Source: Clostridia bacterium (GTDB taxonomy: Bacteria; Bacillota; Clostridia; Oscillospirales; CAG-272). From it: a stretch of 64,000 nucleotides of DNA. This document shows, in pieces, positions 18,326-36,680 of the stretch. Position 1 is the first letter of the stretch. Each line of letters starts with the position of its first letter. The stretch lies in assembly GCA_017547755.1 (NCBI GenBank), contig JAFYOX010000089.1, positions 1,643-65,642 of the forward strand, written 5' to 3'. A program made the position numbers and the translations under genes. The notes beneath the pieces were generated by a model. It had not been told where the DNA came from. It saw only the letters and a list, made by a program, of their open reading frames with translations, and did not search any database.

Positions 18326-19609
18326 TTATTCCATACTGTAAACCGTTCCCATGAACAGGGGGATCATGGTGTCGTTTTCGATGATCATGTAGAAGAAGGG
18401 GCGGTTGAGTTCGATGATTTTGGGCTGGGCAGACGGACCGGCGGAGGTCATCATGACCATGACTTCCGTCATGGCTGCGGCTTTGGTGCCGTTTTCGTCG
18501 TTGATGATCTTTGCTTTCTGGAGGACGCTGCTGATGTACGGATTGCCCATGCCGGTGCCGAGACCGCGGAGGTTGGCGTTCGCGCCGAAGGCTTCTTCAA
18601 GACCCATGTCCGAGAGGATGTCCGTCAGAGAAAGTTCGGTTTCGTATTCGAATTTCGGCAGGTAAACGCGCACTTTTTCCGAGCCGTCATTGATCGCGCG
18701 GGAGATCTCCGCGAGGTCGAGTCCGGAGACAAACGCATCGATCCCCGCGTTTTCGTCCGGCAGGATGCCGACAAAGGAATAGCCGTCCTTATAGGCTTTC
18801 GTGAAGCCGATGCCGCCGTCCACTTCAAAATAGCTGTGTTCGGTCGAGTACATGAATTTCACATCGGTTTCGGAGCCGTCGTGATTGGTGAAGACCCCGT
18901 CGGAAATGTTGTATTCCTCATAGGGCGTTTCCCATTTTCCGTTGAAAAGGACCGTATTCAGCAGGAGAAGCGCGGCATGCGGCGGAAGTTCTTCGACTGC
19001 CTTGTCGATCATGCCGTCCGTGTTGTCCGATACCCAGCGGTTGATCTCGGCGGGTACGGTTTTATCCGCGAAGTCCACCGATTTCGCTTCCGCACGGTAG
19101 TATTTTTCCGCGACGGTGATGAAATCCCCACTCAGCTCAAAGATCGATTTGTTCGCCCACGCGGAGTTGGCGGTGTTCACCGTGGATTCCGCGGTGCTTT
19201 CCAGTTTTTTCGTGTATTCGTAGAGGTATTCGTTCATCTCGCCGACCGGGATCCCGCCGTTCAGGGCTTCGAACGCTTCAAGCGTTGAGTCTGCCGCGCC
19301 GTTTGAAACGAGCGTGAGCGCATAGATCACCGAAAGCGGAGACAGAACAAGATTTTTCCGTTCGCCGGGTCCGGCGCACGCGGTGAAGAGTTTTTCGGAA
19401 AATCCGGCGACCGCGTCGGTGAAGCGTTCATCGGCTTCCGTTCCGGTCGGCTCGGATGCCGCCGCAGCGATCGGAACTGCCGCCGCCGGTGTGAAGACGG
19501 GCTTGTCTTCGGGCGATGATACGGTTCCGTCCTCACCGGCAGGTGCGGCGCAGGACGTCAGAGCGATGGGCAGGCAGAGCATGGAGAGCAAAAGACGTTT
19601 GAAAAGCAT
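18326..19609 (-). CDS. Serpin (serine protease inhibitor) lipoprotein
   Basis: Lipobox LTSC; NLVLSPLSV, INRWVSDNTDGMI, NTVLFNGKW, LPKFEYE, hinge ENGTKAAA, LNRPFFYMI, PLFMG. Confidence 0.93.
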   Translation of the reverse strand: MLFKRLLLSMLCLPIALTSCAAPAGEDGTVSSPEDKPVFTPAAAVPIAAAASEPTGTEADERFTDAVAGFSEKLFTACAGPGERKNLVLSPLSVIYALTLVSNGAADSTLEAFEALNGGIPVGEMNEYLYEYTKKLESTAESTVNTANSAWANKSIFELSGDFITVAEKYYRAEAKSVDFADKTVPAEINRWVSDNTDGMIDKAVEELPPHAALLLLNTVLFNGKWETPYEEYNISDGVFTNHDGSETDVKFMYSTEHSYFEVDGGIGFTKAYKDGYSFVGILPDENAGIDAFVSGLDLAEISRAINDGSEKVRVYLPKFEYETELSLTDILSDMGLEEAFGANANLRGLGTGMGNPYISSVLQKAKIINDENGTKAAAMTEVMVMMTSAGPSAQPKIIELNRPFFYMIIENDTMIPLFMGTVYSME

Positions 19610-22480: not shown

Positions 22481-23449
22481 ATGAAAAAGAAAGTCAAAAC
22501 GGTATCCGGAAATCCGGAAGCATCGGTGCCGGACGGAACGGAAACCGTGATCCAATCCGAAAAAAAGAAGAAATGGCGCATCTCCAAACGCGAACGTGCC
22601 GAGCGCCGTCGGACGGCGTTTTTTCTGACGCCCAGCTTCCTCGGCGTGATGCTGTTTTTTATCCTGCCGTTTCTTGTTGTTATATTTTATGCCCTGATCG
22701 ATAATCCGACCACGGCGAACTTTGTCGGTTTCTCGAATTTCGAAAAACTGTTTTCGAACAATGCCTTCCGGCTGGCGCTGAAGAATACCGGCATTTTCTC
22801 TCTGACTGCCGTACCTCTGGTGGTGGTGACTGCGCTTGCGCTCGCCGTCCTGCTGGAGTCGAATATTCCGTACAAAAGCACATTCCGGACGATCTTCCTC
22901 TCTCCGATGATCGTTCCGGCGGCATCGGTCATTCTGATCTGGCAGGTGCTTTTCGATTACAACGGCGTCATCAACGATATTGCGGTGTTCTTCGGAGCGG
23001 ATCCGGTCGAATGGCTGAAATCCGACTTCGGGTATGTCGTCGTTGTTCTGCTCTTCCTCTGGAAGAACATCGGGTACAACATGATCATGTTCATGTCCGC
23101 CCTGTCCGCGATCCCGCGCGGGATCCTTGAGGTGGCGATGCTTGACGGCTGCGGGACCGTGCGCCGGTTCTTCACGATCAAGCTCCGCTATCTCTCGTCC
23201 ACGCTGTCGTACGTGACGATCATGTCCCTCATCAACTCGTTCAAGATCTTCCGTGAGGTCTACCTCCTTACCGGGGATTATCCGTACGACTCCATGTATA
23301 CCTTACAGCATTTCATGAACAATACCTTCAGCAATTACGATTATCAGAAACTTTCGAGCGCCGCCATCGTCCTGTGCGCGGTCATGATCGTGATCATCGG
23401 CATCCTGCTGTGGGTGGACAATCATGTCGGAAAGGGGATTGAAGAATGA
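22481..23449 (+). CDS. Carbohydrate (CUT1) ABC permease, MalF/UgpA-like
   Basis: FVGFSNF, FLSPMIVP, LWKNIGYNMIMF, EAA loop IPRGILEVAMLDG. Confidence 0.9.
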   Translation: MKKKVKTVSGNPEASVPDGTETVIQSEKKKKWRISKRERAERRRTAFFLTPSFLGVMLFFILPFLVVIFYALIDNPTTANFVGFSNFEKLFSNNAFRLALKNTGIFSLTAVPLVVVTALALAVLLESNIPYKSTFRTIFLSPMIVPAASVILIWQVLFDYNGVINDIAVFFGADPVEWLKSDFGYVVVVLLFLWKNIGYNMIMFMSALSAIPRGILEVAMLDGCGTVRRFFTIKLRYLSSTLSYVTIMSLINSFKIFREVYLLTGDYPYDSMYTLQHFMNNTFSNYDYQKLSSAAIVLCAVMIVIIGILLWVDNHVGKGIEE

Positions 23450-24399
23450 CAACCGATCTCCGGCGGAATTCCGCTTCCTTTCCGCAGAAACCAAAGAAAA
23501 AGAAGATCCGTTTCCGGCGCGTGCTTTTTCTCCTGTTCGCGCTGACGGTGCTTGTGACCTTCGCCTTCCTGTTCCTCTTCCCGACGGTGTTCACTGTCAC
23601 GAACTCGTTCATGTCCACGACGGAGATTTCCGCAAACTACGGCAAGATCTTCACCGGACTTGGGATCTCCGGGGACGGCGGCCGCGTCTTCATCGCGGAA
23701 AAGGTCAATCTTCAGCTCATTCCCGACCGGGTGAGCTTCTCGCAGTACGCTACGGTGCTGCTGAAAAGCCCGGAATACCTGCTGAAATTCTGGAATTCCG
23801 TGATCTATGTCCTGCCCATCGTGATTTTTCAGCTCGTTGTGGCAGCCGGTGCGTCCTACTGCTTTTCCCGAGTTGAGACAAAATTCCGCAGTATCGTATT
23901 TTTCATGTACATCATCCTGATGCTCATGCCGTATCAGGTCACGCTTGTCCCGAACTACATCGTCATGGACAAGCTCAGTCTGATGAACACCCGATGGGCG
24001 ATCATCCTTCCGGGGATCTTCTCGCCGTTCTCGGTGTTCATCCTGACGAAATTCATGCGGCGCATCCCGACGGCGGTCGTGGAAGCGGCGAAACTGGACG
24101 GTGCGAGCGAATGGCAGATCTTTTCGCTGATCTATATGCCGCTCTGCCGCAGTACGCTGTATTCGGTTGCGATCCTTGTGTTCATCGACTACTGGAACAT
24201 GGTCGAACAGCCGCTGATCCTTCTTGCCGATCAGGAACTGTATCCGCTGTCCGTGTTCCTTTCGAAGATCAACGAAGGCGATACCGGCATTGCGCTCGCC
24301 ATCGCGGTCATCTACATGGTGCCGCCGGTGCTGCTGTTCCTCTACAGCGAAGATTACCTCATCGACGGGATCGCGTATTCCGCGTCGGTGAAGGGTTAA
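23446..24399 (+). CDS. Carbohydrate (CUT1) ABC permease, MalG/UgpE-like
   Basis: MLMPYQVTLVPNY, IILPGIFSPF, EAA loop IPTAVVEAAKLDGAS, FIDYWN. Confidence 0.9.
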   Translation: MTTDLRRNSASFPQKPKKKKIRFRRVLFLLFALTVLVTFAFLFLFPTVFTVTNSFMSTTEISANYGKIFTGLGISGDGGRVFIAEKVNLQLIPDRVSFSQYATVLLKSPEYLLKFWNSVIYVLPIVIFQLVVAAGASYCFSRVETKFRSIVFFMYIILMLMPYQVTLVPNYIVMDKLSLMNTRWAIILPGIFSPFSVFILTKFMRRIPTAVVEAAKLDGASEWQIFSLIYMPLCRSTLYSVAILVFIDYWNMVEQPLILLADQELYPLSVFLSKINEGDTGIALAIAVIYMVPPVLLFLYSEDYLIDGIAYSASVKG

Positions 24400-24433
24400 G
24401 AAATACCCCCAACATATCCAAAGGAGAACCGAA

Positions 24434-26815
24434 ATGTCAAGGGATTCCGAAAGCCGCAGAGCCTGGATCAAGAACGTGGCCATCATTTTTCTTGTGATCC
24501 TGCTTCTGCTGACCTTTTTCTCAAATACCATATTGAACTATACGCTGCCGGAAGTTTCCGCGCAGTACGCGCAGTACGGGTCGATCGCCGCGTCCGTGAA
24601 GGTCAGCGGCACCGTCAAGGCGAACGAAAGTTATAACGTAATGTACGAAGCCGATCAGGCGGAGGCGGAAAACGGGATCATTCAGTCACGCAAGGTCGTG
24701 TCCGTGTACGTGAAGGAAGGGGATACCGTTTCGAAGGATACGCCCATCATCGCTCTGCAGGGCGGTGCCAGCACACAGCTGGAATCCGCGCAGGCGGAGT
24801 ATGACAAGCTCAGGCGGGAATACGATCTTGCGCTTCTGCAGGATGTTGTCGATGAACTGGAATCCGGCAATACGCTGAGCAAGGCAGAACAGGCGATCGC
24901 CGACAAAAAGAAGGAACTCGCCGAACTGAACGCGGAATATACCGCCGTTCTCGGCGGTGTGGATACGACGTCCGTGATCGAAGCGCGCATCGAAACGCTG
25001 GAAGACGGGATCGAGTATCTGAACGAACTGATCGCCGCACAGTCGGAAAAAGTTGCGGAGATCAAAGGGAAGATCCAGTCTGCGGAAGGCATGATCGAAG
25101 AGGATATCTTCAGCACGCTGACCGTTGCGGAAAAGCTGGCGGTCGCGGAAGAAGAATATGCCGTTCTGGAACAGACGTATGCGGAGCTGACGGCGAATGT
25201 GGAAACGCTGAAAGCCGAGATGGAACGGATCGAAAGCACTTCCGGCGACATCGGCAAAGCGAATACGCTGACGAACGAGATCCGTTCGCTGGAAAGTCAA
25301 CTGGAAAGTCTGGAAAAGCAGTACAGCCGTGCGGAAGAAGACTTTTACGATGAAGTGAGTGAGATCATCGAAAATTACAGAGATAAATATTATGCAGCAG
25401 TAGAGAATTACGAAAAATTTAAAGAGCAGCAAATGACATCTGCGCCGGAGGACGGCAATACGGACGGAGGTGCTACAGATGAACCTGTAACGCCGCGCTG
25501 GGATGTATATGATGAAAATAACAATCTGATCCCCGTTTCTGTAACATCAAATGAACAGTCCTATCTGGAAGCAATATATGAAGCGGAAATGGCATGGCGA
25601 GCGGCTCAGGACTGGAACGTTGACGAAATCGAGACGCTGAAAAAAGCCTATGACCGTTCCGAAGAAGACCTTTCCGATCAGATTTCCGACCTCGAACGCA
25701 AGATTTCCGACGCATACGAAAAACTTGACGTCATCGGTCTTCCCGAAGTGGACGACGTCATCAACTATGCCACCGATTACGACCTCTCCGAAGCCAAGCG
25801 CCGCTACGATGAAGCCAGCGCAAGCCTGAGCGAGGTTACCGGAAAGTACGAAGAAGCAAAAACAAAAGTCGAATCTCTCCGGAAGCAGAATACCGCAGAC
25901 GGAATGGTGTCCGAGTACACGATCCTGCTGAATACCTATCAGGCGGAGCTTGACAGTCTGGAAGCCCAGCTCAAGCAGAAGAACAAGGACCTGGAAGCGG
26001 CGCGGAAGGAACTTTCCGGTGCGGAAACACCCGCCGATCCCGAGGATATCCGCAAGCAGATCGAAGCGGCGGAAAAGAATATCGTGGAACTGGAAGCTCA
26101 GCTTGAAATCACGAAGGCGACCGAAAACAAGTCCGGTCAGACCACCGAATTCGAACGTGCCGATCAGCTGAAGAAGCTCGAAGAACTCCAGAAAAAGATC
26201 GAGGAATACAAAAACGCTCCCGAAACCGTATCCGTCACCGCTCCCATCGCCGGACGGATCGTTTCCGTGGATGTGGTCCCCGGCGATACCGTGACCAGCG
26301 GCAACACCGTCGCGCGCATCGAGATCGCCGACAAGGGCTACATCTGCGAGATCACCATGTCCGCCGAAGAGGCGCGGAAGATCCAGGTCGGCGCACCTTG
26401 TACGATCAGCAACTCCTGGTGGTACTCCGAAGTTTCCGCGTCCGTCACGCAGATCCGTTCCGATCCGCAGAGCCAGGGCAAGAACCGCATCGTTGTGATC
26501 ACCGTGAACGGGGATGTCTACGAAGGTCAGAGCCTCAGCTTCACCATCGGCGACCGCAATCAGTCCTATGACTGCGTTCTCCCGAATTCCGCGATCCGTG
26601 AGGACAACGACGGCAAGTTCGTTCTGACCGTCACCTCCAAGAAGACTCCGCTCGGCGTCCGCTATACCGCCGTCCGCACCAACATCGAAGTGCTTGCGTC
26701 CGACGATACCAAGTCCGCCGTTTCCGGTCTGTACGGAAGCGAATTCGTCATCACGAACGCGACCTCCCCGATCTCCGACAAACAGCAGGTCCGTCTGGCG
26801 GACGAAAACGGATGA
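24434..26815 (+). CDS. HlyD/MFP-family adaptor protein with a very long coiled coil
   Basis: N-terminal TM; lipoyl half-motifs VKEGDTVSKDTPIIAL and VTAPIAGRIVSVDVVPGDTV separated by ~480 aa of heptad-rich helix; C-terminal VLPNSAI...VSGL. Confidence 0.85.
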   Translation: MSRDSESRRAWIKNVAIIFLVILLLLTFFSNTILNYTLPEVSAQYAQYGSIAASVKVSGTVKANESYNVMYEADQAEAENGIIQSRKVVSVYVKEGDTVSKDTPIIALQGGASTQLESAQAEYDKLRREYDLALLQDVVDELESGNTLSKAEQAIADKKKELAELNAEYTAVLGGVDTTSVIEARIETLEDGIEYLNELIAAQSEKVAEIKGKIQSAEGMIEEDIFSTLTVAEKLAVAEEEYAVLEQTYAELTANVETLKAEMERIESTSGDIGKANTLTNEIRSLESQLESLEKQYSRAEEDFYDEVSEIIENYRDKYYAAVENYEKFKEQQMTSAPEDGNTDGGATDEPVTPRWDVYDENNNLIPVSVTSNEQSYLEAIYEAEMAWRAAQDWNVDEIETLKKAYDRSEEDLSDQISDLERKISDAYEKLDVIGLPEVDDVINYATDYDLSEAKRRYDEASASLSEVTGKYEEAKTKVESLRKQNTADGMVSEYTILLNTYQAELDSLEAQLKQKNKDLEAARKELSGAETPADPEDIRKQIEAAEKNIVELEAQLEITKATENKSGQTTEFERADQLKKLEELQKKIEEYKNAPETVSVTAPIAGRIVSVDVVPGDTVTSGNTVARIEIADKGYICEITMSAEEARKIQVGAPCTISNSWWYSEVSASVTQIRSDPQSQGKNRIVVITVNGDVYEGQSLSFTIGDRNQSYDCVLPNSAIREDNDGKFVLTVTSKKTPLGVRYTAVRTNIEVLASDDTKSAVSGLYGSEFVITNATSPISDKQQVRLADENG

Positions 26816-26828
26816 GAAGGTGGACGAC

Positions 26829-27938
26829 GTGAACGATAAGGTCAACAGAAAACTGCTTGCCGCATCCGGCATTGCCGCCGTGATCTTCGCGGTCAGCGCG
26901 CTTCTGCTCGGCATTCTGGAACTGACCGTGTCCGGCATCTCCGGCTCGATCGATTTTCTCGATGCCGGGGAACGCTGGTCGTCATCCGGTGACCGGTTTG
27001 CCGTCATCACGCTGTATGCCGAGGAAAGCGCGGCAATGTCCGGCGATCAGGTCAAATCATGGGTGCGCGGCATCGATGCGAAACTGCTTGAATCCTCCGT
27101 TGCGCCGAACGAAAACGCCAGATCGTGGGCATACACCTACGCCGCCGAAGAAACCATGACCGTCTACGGTCCGAAGGACAAGGCGACGGCGGAGGTGATC
27201 GCGGCAGGCGGAGACTTCTTCGTCTTCCATCCGCAGATGTTCGTCTACGGATCGGCATTTCTGAACGATGAATCCAACCCGAACGGCGTGGTCATCGACG
27301 AAGACCTCGCATGGAAGATCTTCGGTGCGACCGACATCGTCGGCATGGAAATGACGGTGGACGGCGTCCCGTTCACCGTGACCGGCGTCAGCCGCCGGGC
27401 TTTTGACCGCGGGATCTACGATTACACTTACGGAGAGCGTCCGCGGATGTACATGAGCTACGCCGGATACGTCAAACTGCGCGGTGACGGGGAGCATATC
27501 ACGATGTTCGAGACCGCTCTGCCGAATGCCGTCCGCGGCTTCGCGCAGAATATCTTCAGCAGTGCCGTTACCGCCAACGAGGAAACCATGAGCGTCATGG
27601 AAGCCTCCGACCGGTTCTCGCTCATGAACCGGTACGCGAATATGAAAATTCTGAAATATTCGTGGATCCGCGAAAATAAAATTGAGTATCCCTACTGGGA
27701 AAACGAAGCGCGTACCGCCGATTTCCGCTGTGCGATCCTCATGATCTTTGAGGTGATCCTTGCGGCGGCAGCGGTCTCTTCCATGCTCGTATCCTTTGTT
27801 CTTCTGCGTTCCTCCGGCTGGACCGTGACGGACAGCGTGAAGAATCTGTATTCAAAATCCAGCAAAAACCAAAGAAAAAAACGGCGTACACCGCCGGAAA
27901 ATCCGCAGAATATCCGAAGAAAGAGGGGAAATCCATGA
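26829..27938 (+). CDS. MacB-like periplasmic-core-domain membrane protein
   Basis: GTG start after GAAGGTGG; GGDFFVFH...GSAF...VVIDEDLAWKIFGATDIVGMEMTVDGVPFTVTGV; only two TM segments apparent. Confidence 0.75.
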   Translation: MNDKVNRKLLAASGIAAVIFAVSALLLGILELTVSGISGSIDFLDAGERWSSSGDRFAVITLYAEESAAMSGDQVKSWVRGIDAKLLESSVAPNENARSWAYTYAAEETMTVYGPKDKATAEVIAAGGDFFVFHPQMFVYGSAFLNDESNPNGVVIDEDLAWKIFGATDIVGMEMTVDGVPFTVTGVSRRAFDRGIYDYTYGERPRMYMSYAGYVKLRGDGEHITMFETALPNAVRGFAQNIFSSAVTANEETMSVMEASDRFSLMNRYANMKILKYSWIRENKIEYPYWENEARTADFRCAILMIFEVILAAAAVSSMLVSFVLLRSSGWTVTDSVKNLYSKSSKNQRKKRRTPPENPQNIRRKRGNP

Positions 27939-30376
27939 GAAAATACTCTGTGAAGAAAATTGCATCCGCGGCGCTTGCCGTAGTGATGGCGGCTTCCTCG
28001 CTGACCGCCCTGTCGTCATGCGGAAAAAAGGAACCCGTGAAGGAAAAGCGAACCAACGTCTACAGCGGCATCGAGATCACCCTGCCGGAAGGCGTGGACT
28101 ATGTCCAGAATCTGTTCCATGCAGGGGAAAATATCTGCATGATGTACAACAAGGTGTTCACCATCACCTACAACGAATCCGGCGAGGAAGTCGGACGTGT
28201 TCCCGGATACCAGTGGGATAGCGAAGGGCTGCAGGACGGCTGGTGGCAGGACTACCAGACCTCCAACTATGTTGCGACCCTGGATTCCGCATCCGGTGAG
28301 ATCAGCGAAGTGAAGATCGACGTGATCCAGAACGATACCGGCAACAGCTATATGCACAGTATGCGCGGCGGTGCGGACGGCACCGCATGGGCGCTGATTA
28401 ACACCTGGGAATATGCCGATGACTATTCATGGTCACGGAACACCTACACGCTCCGCGCGGTCGATCCGGTGAGCGGTGAAATGAGCGAAGGCGTCCTTCT
28501 CAACGACGCTCTGCTGAATGCCGGAATCGACGAAGCGAATATGTACATCAACAATTTCGTCGTTACGGAAGCCGGTAAGATCTATCTCAGCACCGATACC
28601 TGCATCGTCGGCGTCGACCGGAACGGTACCTTCAAGGAAAAGATCCAGCTCGATGAAGACGGCTGGATGAACGGTATGTTCGCACATGGCGAAAAGCTCT
28701 ACACCCTGTTCTATCCCAACAGCGGAAGTCAGAAGCTCAAGGTGATCGAAGACGGCAAGATCACCGACATTTCCACTGAAACGCTCAAAGACATCATGCA
28801 GGCGGCGTACAGCTTCTACGGATTCTCCGATACGAAGATGTACTACAGCACCAATTCCGGCATCCATGTCTATGACTTTACCACCGACACCACGGCGGAA
28901 CTCATGAACTACATCAATTCCGACGTGGATTCCGGCAGTACCGGCAGTGCGGTGGTTCTTCCTGACGAACGGATCGCCATCGTGCAGACCGACTGGAGCA
29001 GCGATGTATCGACGAACACTGTGGCTCTTCTCAGCCGTGTGCCGGACGAACAGCTTCAGGAAGAGATCATTCTCGATCTCGGCTGTCTCTACAGCGATTA
29101 TTATCTCACCAAGGCGATCATCAAGTTCAACAAGCAGAACACCGGCGTCCGCATCTCCGTGCGTGACTACTCGCAGTACAACAACGAGGACAACGAATGG
29201 AAGGGCGCATCGATCCAGTTCAACAACGACATCGTGACGGGCAATGTACCGGATATCGTTCTTCTCAGCTCCGAACTTCCGGCGGAAAGCTACTTCCAGA
29301 AGGGACTGTTTGCCGATCTGTACAGCTTCATGGATGATCCGGAGATCGGCGTCAGCCGCGCGGATTATCTGGAAAACGTTCTGAAGGCGTGTGAAGTGGA
29401 CGGAAAGCTGTACTCCATGATCCTTTCCTTCACGCTCAGCACGCTTGCCGCAAAGAGCGAATTTGTCGGCACCGAATCCGGCTGGACGCTCGCCGAAATG
29501 ATGGAAGTGATCCGGAATATGCCGGAAGGTATGTCCGCGTTCCTCGAATATTCCCGTCAGAATGTGCTCGAAAACTTCTTCTCCTACTCGATGGATACGT
29601 TCGTCAACTGGGAGACCGGTGAGACCTATTTTGAAGACGAAGGCTTCGTGGAATTCATGAAATTCCTTGAAACCTGCCCCGAAAAGGGATTCTGGGAAGC
29701 GATGTATCCCGATGACGGCACCGAATACGTCTACGATGAAGAACTGGAAAAGGAATACTACCAGAAGTATGACCTGCGTTTCTACAAGGATTATTCGCTG
29801 TTCAGCATGGCGAATATTTCCAACTTCACCCGTATCATGAACGACCGCGGCATGTTTGCGACCAAGGATATCACCTACATCGGCTTCCCGACGAACGATG
29901 AATCTTCCAACGGTGCAACGATCCTGCCGCAGGCGGAACTGGCGGTCAGCGCACAGTCCCTCGCACAGAGAGAAGCGTGGAGCTTCATCAAGTTCGTTCT
30001 GAACGATGAAACCTACAACGCGAATACCTGGGCGTTTTCGACCAACCTCCGCCGTCTGGAAGAAAAGAAGGCGAAGGCTGCCGACGATTATTATTACTAC
30101 GAACAGACCGAAGACGATCTCGCATGGTACAAGGAATACTATTCGGAAGAATACTTCCAGTACATGCTGACCCGCAACCAGCCTCTTGATGAATCCACCA
30201 TCGATCAGACGATGGACATCATCAGGGGAGCGTCCAAGGTCCAGCGCAGCGACAGCGCCCTTCTTGATATCATCAACGAAGAACTGTCCGTCTTCTTCTC
30301 CGGCACCCGCTCCGCCGAAGAAACCGCAAAGATCATCAACAGCCGCGCAAGAATTTATGTGAGCGAAAATTCATAA
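27935..30376 (+). CDS. Large solute-binding lipoprotein (N-terminal beta-rich domain plus C-terminal CUT1-type SBP)
   Basis: 813 aa; lipobox LSSC; IIKFNKQN, GNVPDIV, EAWSFIKF, SAEETAKII. Confidence 0.8.
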   Translation: MRKYSVKKIASAALAVVMAASSLTALSSCGKKEPVKEKRTNVYSGIEITLPEGVDYVQNLFHAGENICMMYNKVFTITYNESGEEVGRVPGYQWDSEGLQDGWWQDYQTSNYVATLDSASGEISEVKIDVIQNDTGNSYMHSMRGGADGTAWALINTWEYADDYSWSRNTYTLRAVDPVSGEMSEGVLLNDALLNAGIDEANMYINNFVVTEAGKIYLSTDTCIVGVDRNGTFKEKIQLDEDGWMNGMFAHGEKLYTLFYPNSGSQKLKVIEDGKITDISTETLKDIMQAAYSFYGFSDTKMYYSTNSGIHVYDFTTDTTAELMNYINSDVDSGSTGSAVVLPDERIAIVQTDWSSDVSTNTVALLSRVPDEQLQEEIILDLGCLYSDYYLTKAIIKFNKQNTGVRISVRDYSQYNNEDNEWKGASIQFNNDIVTGNVPDIVLLSSELPAESYFQKGLFADLYSFMDDPEIGVSRADYLENVLKACEVDGKLYSMILSFTLSTLAAKSEFVGTESGWTLAEMMEVIRNMPEGMSAFLEYSRQNVLENFFSYSMDTFVNWETGETYFEDEGFVEFMKFLETCPEKGFWEAMYPDDGTEYVYDEELEKEYYQKYDLRFYKDYSLFSMANISNFTRIMNDRGMFATKDITYIGFPTNDESSNGATILPQAELAVSAQSLAQREAWSFIKFVLNDETYNANTWAFSTNLRRLEEKKAKAADDYYYYEQTEDDLAWYKEYYSEEYFQYMLTRNQPLDESTIDQTMDIIRGASKVQRSDSALLDIINEELSVFFSGTRSAEETAKIINSRARIYVSENS

Positions 30377-30385
30377 AAAAAGAGG

Positions 30386-30426
30386 ATCGGGGAAACCTTA
30401 TGAGAAAGGTTTCCCCGATTTTTTTG
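30386..30426. terminator. REP-like palindrome copy 4, probably acting as a bidirectional terminator
   Basis: ATCGGGGAAACCTT-ATGAGA-AAGGTTTCCCCGAT with flanking A and T runs, between convergent genes. Confidence 0.7.
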
Positions 30427-30724: not shown

Positions 30725-31843
30725 TTATTTCTGTTCAAGAGTACCGCGGTAGATCTTGCAGTCGTGAGATGCTACGTGTACGTCCATGTTTTCGGTGATG
30801 AGGCCGGTTTCTTCGCCGGTGAAGATGTCACGGAACTTGAAGCCGTAGCCGGAAGCAACGGTGAGACCGAGGTCGTAGAATTCTACGCCGCAGTGACCGT
30901 CGCGGTCGGAGAAGTTGAAGAATGCGAGAACGTATTCGCCGTTTGCCATGTGCTTGAAGAATACGGGACGGTCGCCGCCGCCGATCATCATCGGAGGACG
31001 TGCTTCGATGTCCTGGTTGATGTCGATGAGTTCCTTGTTCTTGAGGAGTTCAAGGTTGAAGTCGTCGAGCTTGTTGAGGTCGCCGCCGATCATGAGCGGG
31101 GACTGGAACAGGCACCACAGAGCGAAGTGGGTACGGTATTCGATGTCGGAGCAGCCGCCGTTGGCAACGTTGCCCTTGCCGTGCATACCGCAGATGAGCA
31201 TGTCGATGTCGTTGTAGCAGCCGGGGCCGGAGTAAGCGAGCTTGTCAACCTGGCTCATTGCGATATCCTTGAAGCTCTGGAAGCTGTCGTTGATGTCGCC
31301 GGTGGAGCGATACATGTGAGCGCCAGTGGAACGGATCCACTTTTCAACTTCGTTGGAACCCCAGTTGCACGCGGAGAAGAGGATTTCACGGCCGCTTGCC
31401 TTGAGAGCCATACCCATTCTGTTGTAGAGGATCGGACCGTGTGCAAGACGCGGCTTGTAGCAGAAGTCGTATTTCAGGAAGTCAACGTCCCATTCTGCGA
31501 AGGTCTTTGCGTCAACGAATTCGTAGTCGAAGGAACCCGGGTAGCCGGCACAGGTACGGGTACCTGCACAGGAGTACATACCGAACTTCAGACCCTTGGA
31601 GTGAACGTATTCAGCGAGAGCCTTCATGCCGGACGGGAACTTTTCGGGGTCAGCAACCATCTTGCCTTCTGCGTTTCTCTTGCGGAGAGACCAGCAGTCG
31701 TCGATAACAACGTATTCGTAACCAACGTCCTTCAGGCCCTTTTCAATGATCGCGTCAGCGGTTTCGCGTACAACCTGTTCGTTGATCGCGCCGCCGAAGG
31801 TGTTCCAGGAGTTCCAACCCATCGGGGGTCTCTGTGCTAACAT
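30725..31843 (-). CDS. GH27 alpha-galactosidase
   Basis: PPMGWNSWN, IDDCW, KFPSGMK, GLKFGMY, DFLKYDFC, YNDIDML. Confidence 0.93.
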   Translation of the reverse strand: MLAQRPPMGWNSWNTFGGAINEQVVRETADAIIEKGLKDVGYEYVVIDDCWSLRKRNAEGKMVADPEKFPSGMKALAEYVHSKGLKFGMYSCAGTRTCAGYPGSFDYEFVDAKTFAEWDVDFLKYDFCYKPRLAHGPILYNRMGMALKASGREILFSACNWGSNEVEKWIRSTGAHMYRSTGDINDSFQSFKDIAMSQVDKLAYSGPGCYNDIDMLICGMHGKGNVANGGCSDIEYRTHFALWCLFQSPLMIGGDLNKLDDFNLELLKNKELIDINQDIEARPPMMIGGGDRPVFFKHMANGEYVLAFFNFSDRDGHCGVEFYDLGLTVASGYGFKFRDIFTGEETGLITENMDVHVASHDCKIYRGTLEQK

Positions 31844-35347: not shown

Positions 35348-35384
35348 TGTATAGGTGTAACCGGTCAGAATGAGGCAAACGAAC

Positions 35385-36680
35385 ATGACACATACGGAAC
35401 TTGAAACCCATCTCACGGAGAATTACGCCGCGCTGGAGCGGTATATAAAATTCCGCATTTCCGACAAGGATCTTGCGGACGATCTGGTGCAGGACATCTG
35501 TCTGACCGTCCTGACGCACGGAGAGAGCCTGCGTCAGCCGGAATCCTTCCGGCCGTGGCTGTACCGGATCGCACGGAACCGGCTGAACGACGTTTACCGC
35601 AGTCCGGAGCGTGAGCGCGAGATCCGGACGGACCGCATGGACAGCTTTGTCAGCCGCCGCGCGGATGCGTTCGTGCATCACGACGCCGTTTCGGAAACGC
35701 TCGCACGGCTTGGTGACGGCGACCGACGTCTGCTGATGCTGTGCTATATGTCGGATATCACGCAGAAAGAAGCGGCGGAACAGCTCGGTATCCCGCTCGG
35801 AACGCTCAAGACCCGGCTGACCGCCGCAAAAAAACGCTTCCGTGAACGGTATCCGTATACGAAAGAAATGGAGAGAACGACAATGAAAAAGAGGATCTTC
35901 CCCGAAATCATGCCCGAATACACGATCACACAGCGCCCGGACGCACCGTTTGAGGTCGTCCACGAAGCCATCATCGGCTGGGGTATCGTACCGCGGCTCG
36001 GCGAAAAATGCGCGTGGGCGGCGTACGATTTTCCGGAAAAGAAGCTGACCGAGACGATGCATCTGGAAGTTACCGGCCGTGCCGAAGTCCACGGCATCGA
36101 AGGCGTGGAAATAAAAACGGTGGAATCCGGCTGGAATTCGTCCGACAATCTTGTCTTTGCGATGGAAGAAACCGAACGCTGGTTCATCGCACAGCTTACC
36201 GATACCCACTGCCGTCTGCTTGCCGAAAGCCACATCGAAGACGGCGTGAAGAAGTGCTATACCTTCCTCGACGGCGCTTCGTTCCTCGACAACTGGGGAT
36301 TCGGTGAGGACAACTGCGGCTTTGAAACGCATCTCCGTCCGCACGGATGGATCACGAAAGACGGGGAGAGGGTCACGGTGGTACCGGAGCCGCAGGTCAT
36401 CGATATCTGCGGACGGTTTGACGTGACGATCGCAGGAAAGATGTACGATACCATCTGTCTGATGGATGTGGAATCCTACGACACCAAGGTGCTTACCGAA
36501 ACGTACATTGACCGCGAAGGACGCATCGTCCTCTGGCGGCGGTTCAACCGGAACGACTGGGGACAGAAGCGCATCGGTCAGCTCTGGACAGAGCGCTTCC
36601 CGGAAAACGAACACCTGACCGTGAACGGCGAGATCTACGTCCACTGGTACGACTGCATCTACGACTGGATCCTGAAATAA
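35385..36680 (+). CDS. ECF sigma factor with a ~265-aa C-terminal extension
   Basis: Region 2 ADDLVQD...FRPWLYRIARN; region 4 QKEAAEQLGIPLGTLKTRL; start 35370 or 35385. Confidence 0.85.
   Translation: MTHTELETHLTENYAALERYIKFRISDKDLADDLVQDICLTVLTHGESLRQPESFRPWLYRIARNRLNDVYRSPEREREIRTDRMDSFVSRRADAFVHHDAVSETLARLGDGDRRLLMLCYMSDITQKEAAEQLGIPLGTLKTRLTAAKKRFRERYPYTKEMERTTMKKRIFPEIMPEYTITQRPDAPFEVVHEAIIGWGIVPRLGEKCAWAAYDFPEKKLTETMHLEVTGRAEVHGIEGVEIKTVESGWNSSDNLVFAMEETERWFIAQLTDTHCRLLAESHIEDGVKKCYTFLDGASFLDNWGFGEDNCGFETHLRPHGWITKDGERVTVVPEPQVIDICGRFDVTIAGKMYDTICLMDVESYDTKVLTETYIDREGRIVLWRRFNRNDWGQKRIGQLWTERFPENEHLTVNGEIYVHWYDCIYDWILK

Follow-up and report, generated by a model that had tools for sequence, protein, structure and literature searches.

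We analyzed a stretch of 64,000 nucleotides (hereafter, the window) from contig JAFYOX010000089.1 of a Clostridia bacterium (assembly GCA_017547755.1; Oscillospirales, CAG-272) and focused on positions 22481-30376 of its plus strand. Five intact open reading frames (ORFs), co-directional and tightly packed, occupy this region, and they encode a pair of permeases of the carbohydrate uptake transporter 1 (CUT1) type, a membrane-fusion protein (MFP), a protein with a MacB-like periplasmic core domain (PCD), and a large binding lipoprotein. Type I importers and the mechanotransmission systems built on MacB and MFPs are taught as separate worlds; here, parts of both lie in one operon. The five genes, referred to below as the module, are as follows:

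22481..23449, plus strand: permA, MalF/UgpA-like CUT1 permease, 322 aa
23446..24399, plus strand: permB, MalG/UgpE-like CUT1 permease, 317 aa
24434..26815, plus strand: membrane-fusion protein (MFP) of the HlyD/MacA type, 793 aa
26829..27938, plus strand: "half-MacB" PCD protein, 369 aa, GTG start
27935..30376, plus strand: binding lipoprotein, 813 aa

The permA/permB junction and the junction of the PCD and lipoprotein genes are both ATGA overlaps, read directly at 23446 and 27935, and 34 nt separate permB from the MFP gene. An alternative start of permA at the upstream GTG 22388 would give a protein of 353 aa. For the PCD gene, GTG 26829 is the most likely start codon; it lies 13 nt past the MFP stop codon and behind a GGTGGA motif, and homologues begin with MN(D/E)KVN at this point. 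A start farther upstream, at TTG 26694, would overlap the MFP gene and was considered unlikely. No ATPase, glycosidase, or regulator gene was found among the five ORFs. In bovine-gut metatranscriptomes from three studies, contigs 90-99% like the window covered the five genes and bridged the four junctions. The runs contained at most 0.16 of the sampled words, and the contigs belong to relatives at 90-99%; they document presence in RNA libraries of close relatives only, not one continuous transcript or a level of expression, with DNA carry-over possible, and bins lacking coverage carry no meaning.

Composition of the module

The permease pair carries the features of a CUT1 type I importer, namely two BPD_transp_1 subunits with EAA coupling loops. 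PermA matched BPD_transp_1 in Pfam (2.3e-12) and UgpA (1.5e-25) and MalF (5.3e-16) in NCBIfam, and has about six hydrophobic segments. PermB matched BPD_transp_1 (1.5e-12) and, in NCBIfam, GlcU, UgpE, and MalG, and its profile matched the structures of AlgM2 (4tqu), SugB (8ja7), and MalG (2r6g). In alignments of 22 orthologues, the EAA loop of PermA showed an invariant G223 together with E217 and A219 conserved in at least 90%, and in that of PermB the residues E213, A214, D218, and G219 were all invariant. PermB was the best-conserved part of the module, with a mean column identity of 69% over the 22 orthologues, and its first extracytoplasmic loop was also conserved.

The third protein has the build of an MFP. 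It matched HlyD_3 (1.5e-9), Biotin_lipoyl, and HlyD_D23 in Pfam and TIGR01730 RND_mfp (1.1e-15) in NCBIfam, and its profile matched the structures of LipC (5nen), MacA (4dk1 and 5nik_D), and EmrA (4tko). A single N-terminal transmembrane (TM) helix at residues 15-33 serves as the anchor, and is followed by a lipoyl domain, whose halves are split by an insert of about 490 aa that is rich in coiled-coil residues, and by a beta-barrel C-terminus. The composition and coiled-coil matches of the insert suggest an alpha-hairpin, which would complete the set of features that characterize the MFP class (an N-terminal anchor, and an alpha-hairpin that divides the lipoyl and beta-barrel domains). If the hairpin is a simple antiparallel coiled coil, arms of about 210-245 residues at 0.15 nm per residue would give a length of roughly 30 nm, a figure of geometry rather than of a model and of the order of a Gram-positive wall. 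The insert ranged from 126 to 646 aa (median 423) in 59 related loci. The best-conserved stretch of the protein was the TM helix with its juxtamembrane segment, which contains 13 of the 31 invariant columns, and this suggests specific contacts within the membrane.

MacB_PCD (PF12704, 1.9e-11) was the only Pfam family found in the PCD protein, which has two hydrophobic helices (9-27 and 303-321) and is the sole MacB_PCD match in its genome. In the AlphaFold 2 (AF2) model (pLDDT 87.8, pTM 0.80), TM1 and a stalk lead into the PCD, and a second stalk and TM2 lead to a short cytoplasmic helix, the tail being short and basic; the top Foldseek matches of this model were MacB, Spr0695, YknZ, YbbP, HrtB, BceB, and LolC/E. 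The arrangement typical of type VII systems, a PCD between TM1 and TM2, was thus found with PF12704, with a Protein Data Bank profile, and with AF2 plus Foldseek. The FtsX four-helix bundle, with TM3-4 and the coupling helix, was absent by Pfam, by hydrophobic helices, and in the AF2 model, and the two-TM build was retained in other orders. When 1.84 billion representative proteins were searched exhaustively with the profile, 658 clusters (50% identity) were obtained at E <= 1e-30, and nearly all of the best 150 representatives were 300-440 residues long. We therefore regard the two-TM PCD protein as a stable family, and not as a fragment. The homologues returned for the PCD profile were all close relatives, labeled "ABC transporter permease" (ABC, ATP-binding cassette) or "hypothetical protein". 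A search for longer PCD homologues had found no fused forms, which was weak evidence, and the exhaustive search gave two, P0181 (1086 aa) and P0266 (1089 aa), both among the best 150. In these, the PCD protein continues in-frame into a signal peptide, a lipobox, and the big binding protein; the topology is consistent, with TM2 running inward and the former signal peptide outward.

The 813-aa lipoprotein has a signal peptide and a lipobox, whose Cys29 was invariant in 18 sequences, and gave no match in Pfam or NCBIfam. Its AF2 model (pLDDT 86.9, pTM 0.82) consists of an all-beta part (43-368) and an alpha/beta part (377-813). The binding domain (377-811) matched CbpC of C. thermocellum (7x0o) with a VIA-align Z of 25.0, a Foldseek value of 1.6e-15, and a profile E of 2.8e-15; YesO, TogB, and others followed among the structural matches of residues 377-813. 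Thus, the module has a binding protein of the sugar (SBP_bac_1/8) fold, as CUT1 importers do. The N-terminal part (40-372) is a six-bladed beta-propeller of the NHL type; in VIA-align, it matched 7nyq_B with a Z of 17.6 and an rmsd of 3.8 over 254 aligned residues. For this domain, the ESM Atlas returned only sub-threshold leads (Reg_prop and SBBP clusters, 0.79-0.85).

These results agree with the original prediction, which had been made from the letters of the window. Direct reading of the ORFs and junctions returned its five-gene layout and both ATGA overlaps, at 23446 and 27935. The proposed sugar-importer permeases with intact EAA loops were recognized by Pfam and NCBIfam and have invariant or near-invariant loop residues in 22 orthologues, and the proposed 793-aa membrane-fusion protein was recognized through HlyD_3, Biotin_lipoyl, and RND_mfp. 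The MacB core with only two TM helices and no FtsX-type bundle proved to have exactly two such helices and no FtsX match in Pfam, and the substrate-binding protein of double size with an extra beta-rich N-terminal domain resolved, in the AF2 model, into a six-bladed propeller and a CUT1 binding domain. The operon was also correctly described as lacking an ATPase, a glycosidase, and a sugar regulator, although a glycosidase gene lies immediately beyond its 3' end, as detailed below.

Conservation of the module and its ATPase

Beyond the window, the module was found in 76 loci that represent at least ten families, with other orders and another class among them. The genomes are samples, many of them incomplete metagenome-assembled genomes (MAGs), and the co-occurrence counts below are descriptive, given that related genomes do not count as independent cases. 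In 25 loci of the same genus, the series MFP-PCD-binding protein was kept, and permA-permB was found wherever the contig reaches; of the 25 loci, 17 contain permB, seven lie on contigs that stop short of it, and L004 lies on a contig that breaks inside permB. In the latter (L004:1-546), the last 9 codons of permB stand upstream of the MFP gene and the preceding 420 nt are unrelated, an assembly break or chimera, or a rearrangement, in a MAG contig.

In the family sample, profile matches to the PCD protein were obtained in 28 of 201 genomes (17 of 97 genera). This figure includes genome G049 (L043), which was rejected as a carrier of the module: its match is weak and partial (9e-9) and falls on an ordinary MacB-type permease, and it was left out of the synteny counts. 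The order sample added 26 genomes with full-length matches from five other families, well apart from the weak partial matches to ordinary MacB-type permeases, the class sample added 19 of 398 further genomes from four more families, and three genomes with the PCD protein were found in other classes of the phylum. The block permA-permB-MFP-PCD was in constant order in 19 of the 20 loci fetched from the family sample (the exception being L043), in 18 of 18 loci from five other families, in 11 of 11 from other orders, and in 3 of 3 from another class. Reading frames were intact in every locus whose contig has the genes whole, apart from one internal stop in the MFP frame of L038; in L041, the MFP and PCD genes are separated by a stop codon. 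When 585 flanking ORFs of 45 loci were clustered, no family beyond these five proved to be conserved.

Co-occurrence was strict in the 201-genome sample. Orthologues of permB (at least 60% identity, E <= 4e-98) were present in 27 genomes, exactly the 27 with a strong PCD match, and the next CUT1 paralogues of permB had at most 41% identity. The big binding protein lies downstream or upstream of the block, depending on the lineage, in one to three copies, yet it stays attached; its persistence through rearrangement speaks for function and not just for common descent. No big binding protein was detected by tblastn in L072 and L074, and large unassigned ORFs adjoin the block there.

The relatives also point to the energiser. 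In eight loci (L049, L050, L052, L053, L056, L077, L078, and L079), a gene for a MalK-type ATPase (ABC_tran+OB_MalK+TOBE_2) directly follows the PCD gene on the same strand, and these ATPases are 52-60% identical to a stand-alone ABC_tran+OB_MalK ATPase encoded on another contig of the genome studied here (L064:1261-2373), where it adjoins an Mrr endonuclease gene. This genome encodes a second ABC_tran+OB_MalK ATPase beside a different permease. No MacB-type ATPase, fused or adjacent, was found in the operon or the 76 related loci; the only ATPase there is of the MalK type. Because eight relatives carry the MalK-type gene within the operon, the energiser is of the importer type, and the stand-alone ATPase that the present genome encodes elsewhere probably serves the module. 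A MalK/MsmX-type ATPase with an OB/TOBE domain, the remaining component of a CUT1 importer, is therefore available both in related operons and as a candidate in the same genome. Encoding the ATPase away from the permeases is normal for CUT1 importers. In Anaerocellum bescii, a single deletion, that of msmK, abolishes growth on several oligosaccharides (PMC12838199).

Two of the claims made from the window sequence were supported by these comparisons, so that the original interpretation holds in part; the wall-spanning adaptor channel or mechanotransducer that it also proposed would follow from fold and geometry. The five genes had been taken for one conserved unit, to be abandoned if they did not co-occur elsewhere, and they clearly do so in 76 loci; the similar neighborhoods considered possible in other Clostridia exist in other genera, families, and orders. 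The suggestion of an MsmX/MalK-type energiser likewise gained support from the in-operon gene of eight relatives and from the stand-alone gene of the same genome.

Several variants were observed. The closed 4.0-Mb genome of L079, from another class, encodes in order permA, permB, an MFP of 403 aa, a PCD protein of 480 aa, MalK, and an SBP_bac_8/1 protein of 459 aa. It and L075 are "minimal" variants (L075:952-5113 and L079:5763-12748), with MFPs of 403-420 aa, canonical binding proteins of 459-483 aa (SBP_bac_8/SBP_bac_1), and PCD proteins of 462-480 aa that have several extra hydrophobic helices after the PCD and no FtsX match in Pfam. Their canonical binding protein and short MFP tie the module to ordinary importers, and they may represent its ancestral form. 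Two loci of a different class (L077 and L078, from genomes G1306 and G1057) gave PCD values of E 1e-96 to 1e-99; these scores exceed those of several Clostridia orders and thereby suggest that the six-gene module was transferred laterally as a whole. Another order includes one family with a sixth gene downstream of the PCD gene (L070:7649-8842, minus strand; L071:10009-11091, L072:9962-11038, and L073:10202-11341, plus strand); the encoded proteins have 358-397 aa and an N-terminal anchor, and the L071 protein, which was scanned, gave no Pfam match.

Two further features follow the operon in the window:

30386..30419, no strand assigned: terminator-like hairpin of 14 pairs (consensus scan; T-run scored on the minus strand)
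30725-31843, minus strand: gene for a GH27 (glycoside hydrolase family 27) alpha-galactosidase (Melibiase_2, 9.3e-70)

The hairpin sits between the end of the operon and the GH27 gene, which is convergent and immediately 3' of the operon. It was the only result used from a promoter and terminator scan that ran at background (promoter-like, 9 versus 6.5 expected; terminator-like, 18 versus 12.2). The GH27 gene adjoins the module in several loci of the same genus and is not a neighbor in other genera; in L011 and L023, it immediately follows the binding-protein gene and has the same orientation. On the 5' side, the operon is preceded by rimM, trmD, and a PP-loop gene, and the rimM-trmD cluster is adjoined by a gene for a 427-aa bacterial serpin (window 18326-19609, minus strand; Pfam Serpin, 1.1e-79). 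Farther downstream, positions 35370-36680 of the plus strand encode a 436-aa protein with regions 2 and 4 of an extracytoplasmic function (ECF)-type sigma factor in its first ~160 residues, followed by a C-terminal extension of ~275 residues with no family match.

Models for the module

Starting from the gene content, the folds, the strict co-occurrence, and the type of the ATPase, we lean, on balance, toward the view that all five gene products belong to a single machine, in which an importer driven by MalK and dependent on the binding protein has two further, obligatory subunits in the envelope; the assembly of its parts, the inward direction of transport, the glycan substrate, and the role as a conduit we infer. 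In such a machine, the lipoprotein's C-terminal domain would bind a sugar or oligosaccharide and the lipoprotein would dock on the PermA/PermB heterodimer, and a dimer of the MalK/MsmX-type ATPase would power uptake through the conserved EAA loops. The two-TM PCD protein would sit in the membrane beside the permeases and offer a docking platform for a ring of MFPs, like the PCD of MacB or the extracellular domain (ECD) of Spr0695; such a ring is proposed because MacA stands on MacB, and Spr0693 on Spr0695, in this way. The MFP hairpins, at ~30 nm, could then form a chimney above the importer, through the inner wall zone and the peptidoglycan, which might lead long pieces of glycan down to the binding protein from the cell surface, or might cage the binding protein. 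The glycan-related genes near the module were counted in favor of this view; besides the GH27 gene, seen here and elsewhere in the genus, the 80 immediate neighbors included one alpha-L-fucosidase, one GH92, and one DUF4838 protein. The fusions P0181 and P0266 are a hint that the PCD and binding proteins are physically linked.

Several points weigh against this view. To our knowledge, no MFP or PCD serves an importer, and a role as a conduit has no precedent. The joining of the parts would follow from folds and geometry, the hairpin length and the oligomeric state of the MFP are estimates, and the two fusions are metagenomic gene calls seen at the protein level only. The neighbors vary by locus, and neither the clustered ORFs of 45 loci nor the 80 immediate neighbors showed a conserved glycosidase or regulator, so the substrate need not be a sugar. 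The PCD protein has neither the FtsX helices nor the coupling helix that normally drive MacB-type domains, which leaves any movement of the PCD without an explained drive. In addition, the full locus L051 has no big binding protein within 9 kb on either side. A complex prediction of PermA (45-322) and PermB with the PCD protein (1-345) as partner, run with alignments, scored 0.00 against a mark of 0.32 and reads neither way.

Alternatively, the MalFGK2-like core may not import at all. In this model, docking of the binding protein and ATP hydrolysis would move the PCD/MFP assembly, so as to drive out a cargo (for instance, a lipoprotein, an antimicrobial peptide, or a lipid-linked glycan) from the surface of the membrane or the inner zone of the wall, or to activate an enzyme of the wall, in the manner of FtsEX and its coiled-coil partners. 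Apart from the module, known PCD folds all belong to type VII mechanotransmission systems (MacB, LolCDE, BceAB, HrtBA, and YbbAP) and MFPs are otherwise known with exporters, and the conservation of the TM and juxtamembrane part of the MFP is as expected for a force or signal passed within the membrane. Nevertheless, importers are the only systems known to combine EAA loops in a type I importer fold with an ATPase of the MalK type and a canonical sugar-type binding protein, the PCD protein has neither coupling helix nor FtsX bundle, and no conserved wall hydrolase or resistance regulator was found nearby, either by ORF clustering or among the 80 neighbors. We consider an exporter or mechanotransducer quite unlikely.

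An equally low probability was given to a third model, in which the MFP and PCD protein carry no substrate and serve to position or stabilize the importer, for example, under surface complexes that degrade glycans, to fix its distance to the wall, or to keep the large binding protein near the permeases. The wide range of hairpin lengths (126-646 aa) would suit a spacer matched to the envelope, the fusions of PCD and binding proteins point to tethering, and the extra beta-propeller of the binding protein could be a protein-protein module; however, the lipoyl and beta-barrel domains, which build the closed ring of known MFPs, are kept and conserved, and a simple spacer would have no need of them. 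Finally, an ordinary sugar importer lying beside the decayed remnant of a MacAB-like pump, which the missing MacB-type ATPase and the likeness of the PCD protein to a truncated MacB might suggest, is nearly excluded by the intact frames of every whole locus (the one L038 MFP stop aside), by the constant length of the PCD protein in ~658 clusters at E <= 1e-30, by the fixed gene order across orders and classes with co-occurrence in 27 of 27 genomes both ways, and by the position of the MFP and PCD genes inside the operon, between the permeases and the ATPase or binding-protein gene.

Relation to known systems and significance

The module resembles CUT1 importers such as MalFGK2-MalE, SugABC-LpqY, and AlgM1M2SS-AlgQ2, including Firmicute systems in which a single orphan MsmX/MsmK ATPase is shared, in its permease pair with EAA loops, its MalK-type ATPase with an OB/TOBE domain, and its sugar-type binding lipoprotein. 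It differs in its fixed partners, since neither an MFP nor a PCD protein of the MacB type accompanies any of the importers described, and in its binding protein, which is about twice the usual size and has an N-terminal six-bladed propeller. The closest likeness to the envelope half is found in Spr0693-0694-0695 of S. pneumoniae and YknXYZ of B. subtilis, which also belong to cells with no outer membrane and combine an MFP with TM, lipoyl, beta-barrel, and alpha-hairpin parts with a PCD/ECD between two TM helices. Compared with these systems, the PCD protein of the module has neither the FtsX TM3-4 nor a MacB-type ATPase, the only motor is an importer, and the hairpin insert is several times longer; MacA-type hairpins, too, are much shorter than this insert. 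In the solved structure, a hexamer of the MFP Spr0693 docks on the extracellular domains of Spr0695 in a 6:2:2 assembly, with its apex 154 A above the membrane (PMC5768738). From MacB-type transporters in general, the module is set apart by the absence of both the FtsX bundle and an ATPase of that system. A search of the genome (74.8% complete) for an outer-membrane factor (TolC/OEP; PF02321) found none, whereas the control search matched in 7 of 14 named control genomes, and the module therefore does not qualify as a tripartite pump of the MacAB-TolC type.

Two further comparisons are instructive. FtsEX, paired with EnvC, PcsB, or CwlO, is comparable in that a long coiled-coil partner is bound by an extracytoplasmic domain of MacB/FtsX type; FtsX itself spans the membrane with four helices and works with a dedicated ATPase, FtsE, and the partners are activators of wall hydrolases, not MFPs with lipoyl and beta-barrel domains. 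In transporters of the GlnPQ and OpuA types, the binding protein is fused to a membrane subunit, and in P0181 and P0266 it is similarly joined to one of the module's membrane subunits, with the differences that the carrier is the PCD protein rather than a permease and that separate genes are present in the window.

In the literature within reach, which did not extend to subscription journals and supplementary files, we found no importer described as having an MFP or PCD protein for a partner; the A. bescii report (PMC12838199) matched "MacB" through strain names only, and the accessible part of an adaptor review uses the word "importer" zero times (PMC4446572). Thus, the combination of an importer with parts of efflux pumps appears to be undescribed. 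If the five genes do form one importing machine, it is possible, though doubtful at present, that they represent the first importer-coupled envelope conduit in a monoderm, in which an MFP tube of tens of nanometers would stand on a PCD platform beside a MalFGK2-type importer and pass glycan fragments, taken up at the cell surface and led across the peptidoglycan, to a propeller-bearing binding protein. Such a conduit, if real, would be a Gram-positive functional counterpart of the "selfish" glycan capture by outer-membrane systems, and would show that uptake, too, can recruit the adaptors of efflux pumps.

The module is common in gut and rumen Clostridia, as indicated by the ~658 PCD clusters at 50% identity, and would add a new architecture to ABC transport. 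The labels "ABC transporter permease" for the PCD protein and efflux adaptor for the MFP probably mislead metabolic reconstructions of gut Clostridia. With five or six genes, four known folds, and natural minimal and fused variants, the module is a defined and testable object, and it raises the question, hardly examined so far, of how thick-walled bacteria bring large nutrients through the wall.

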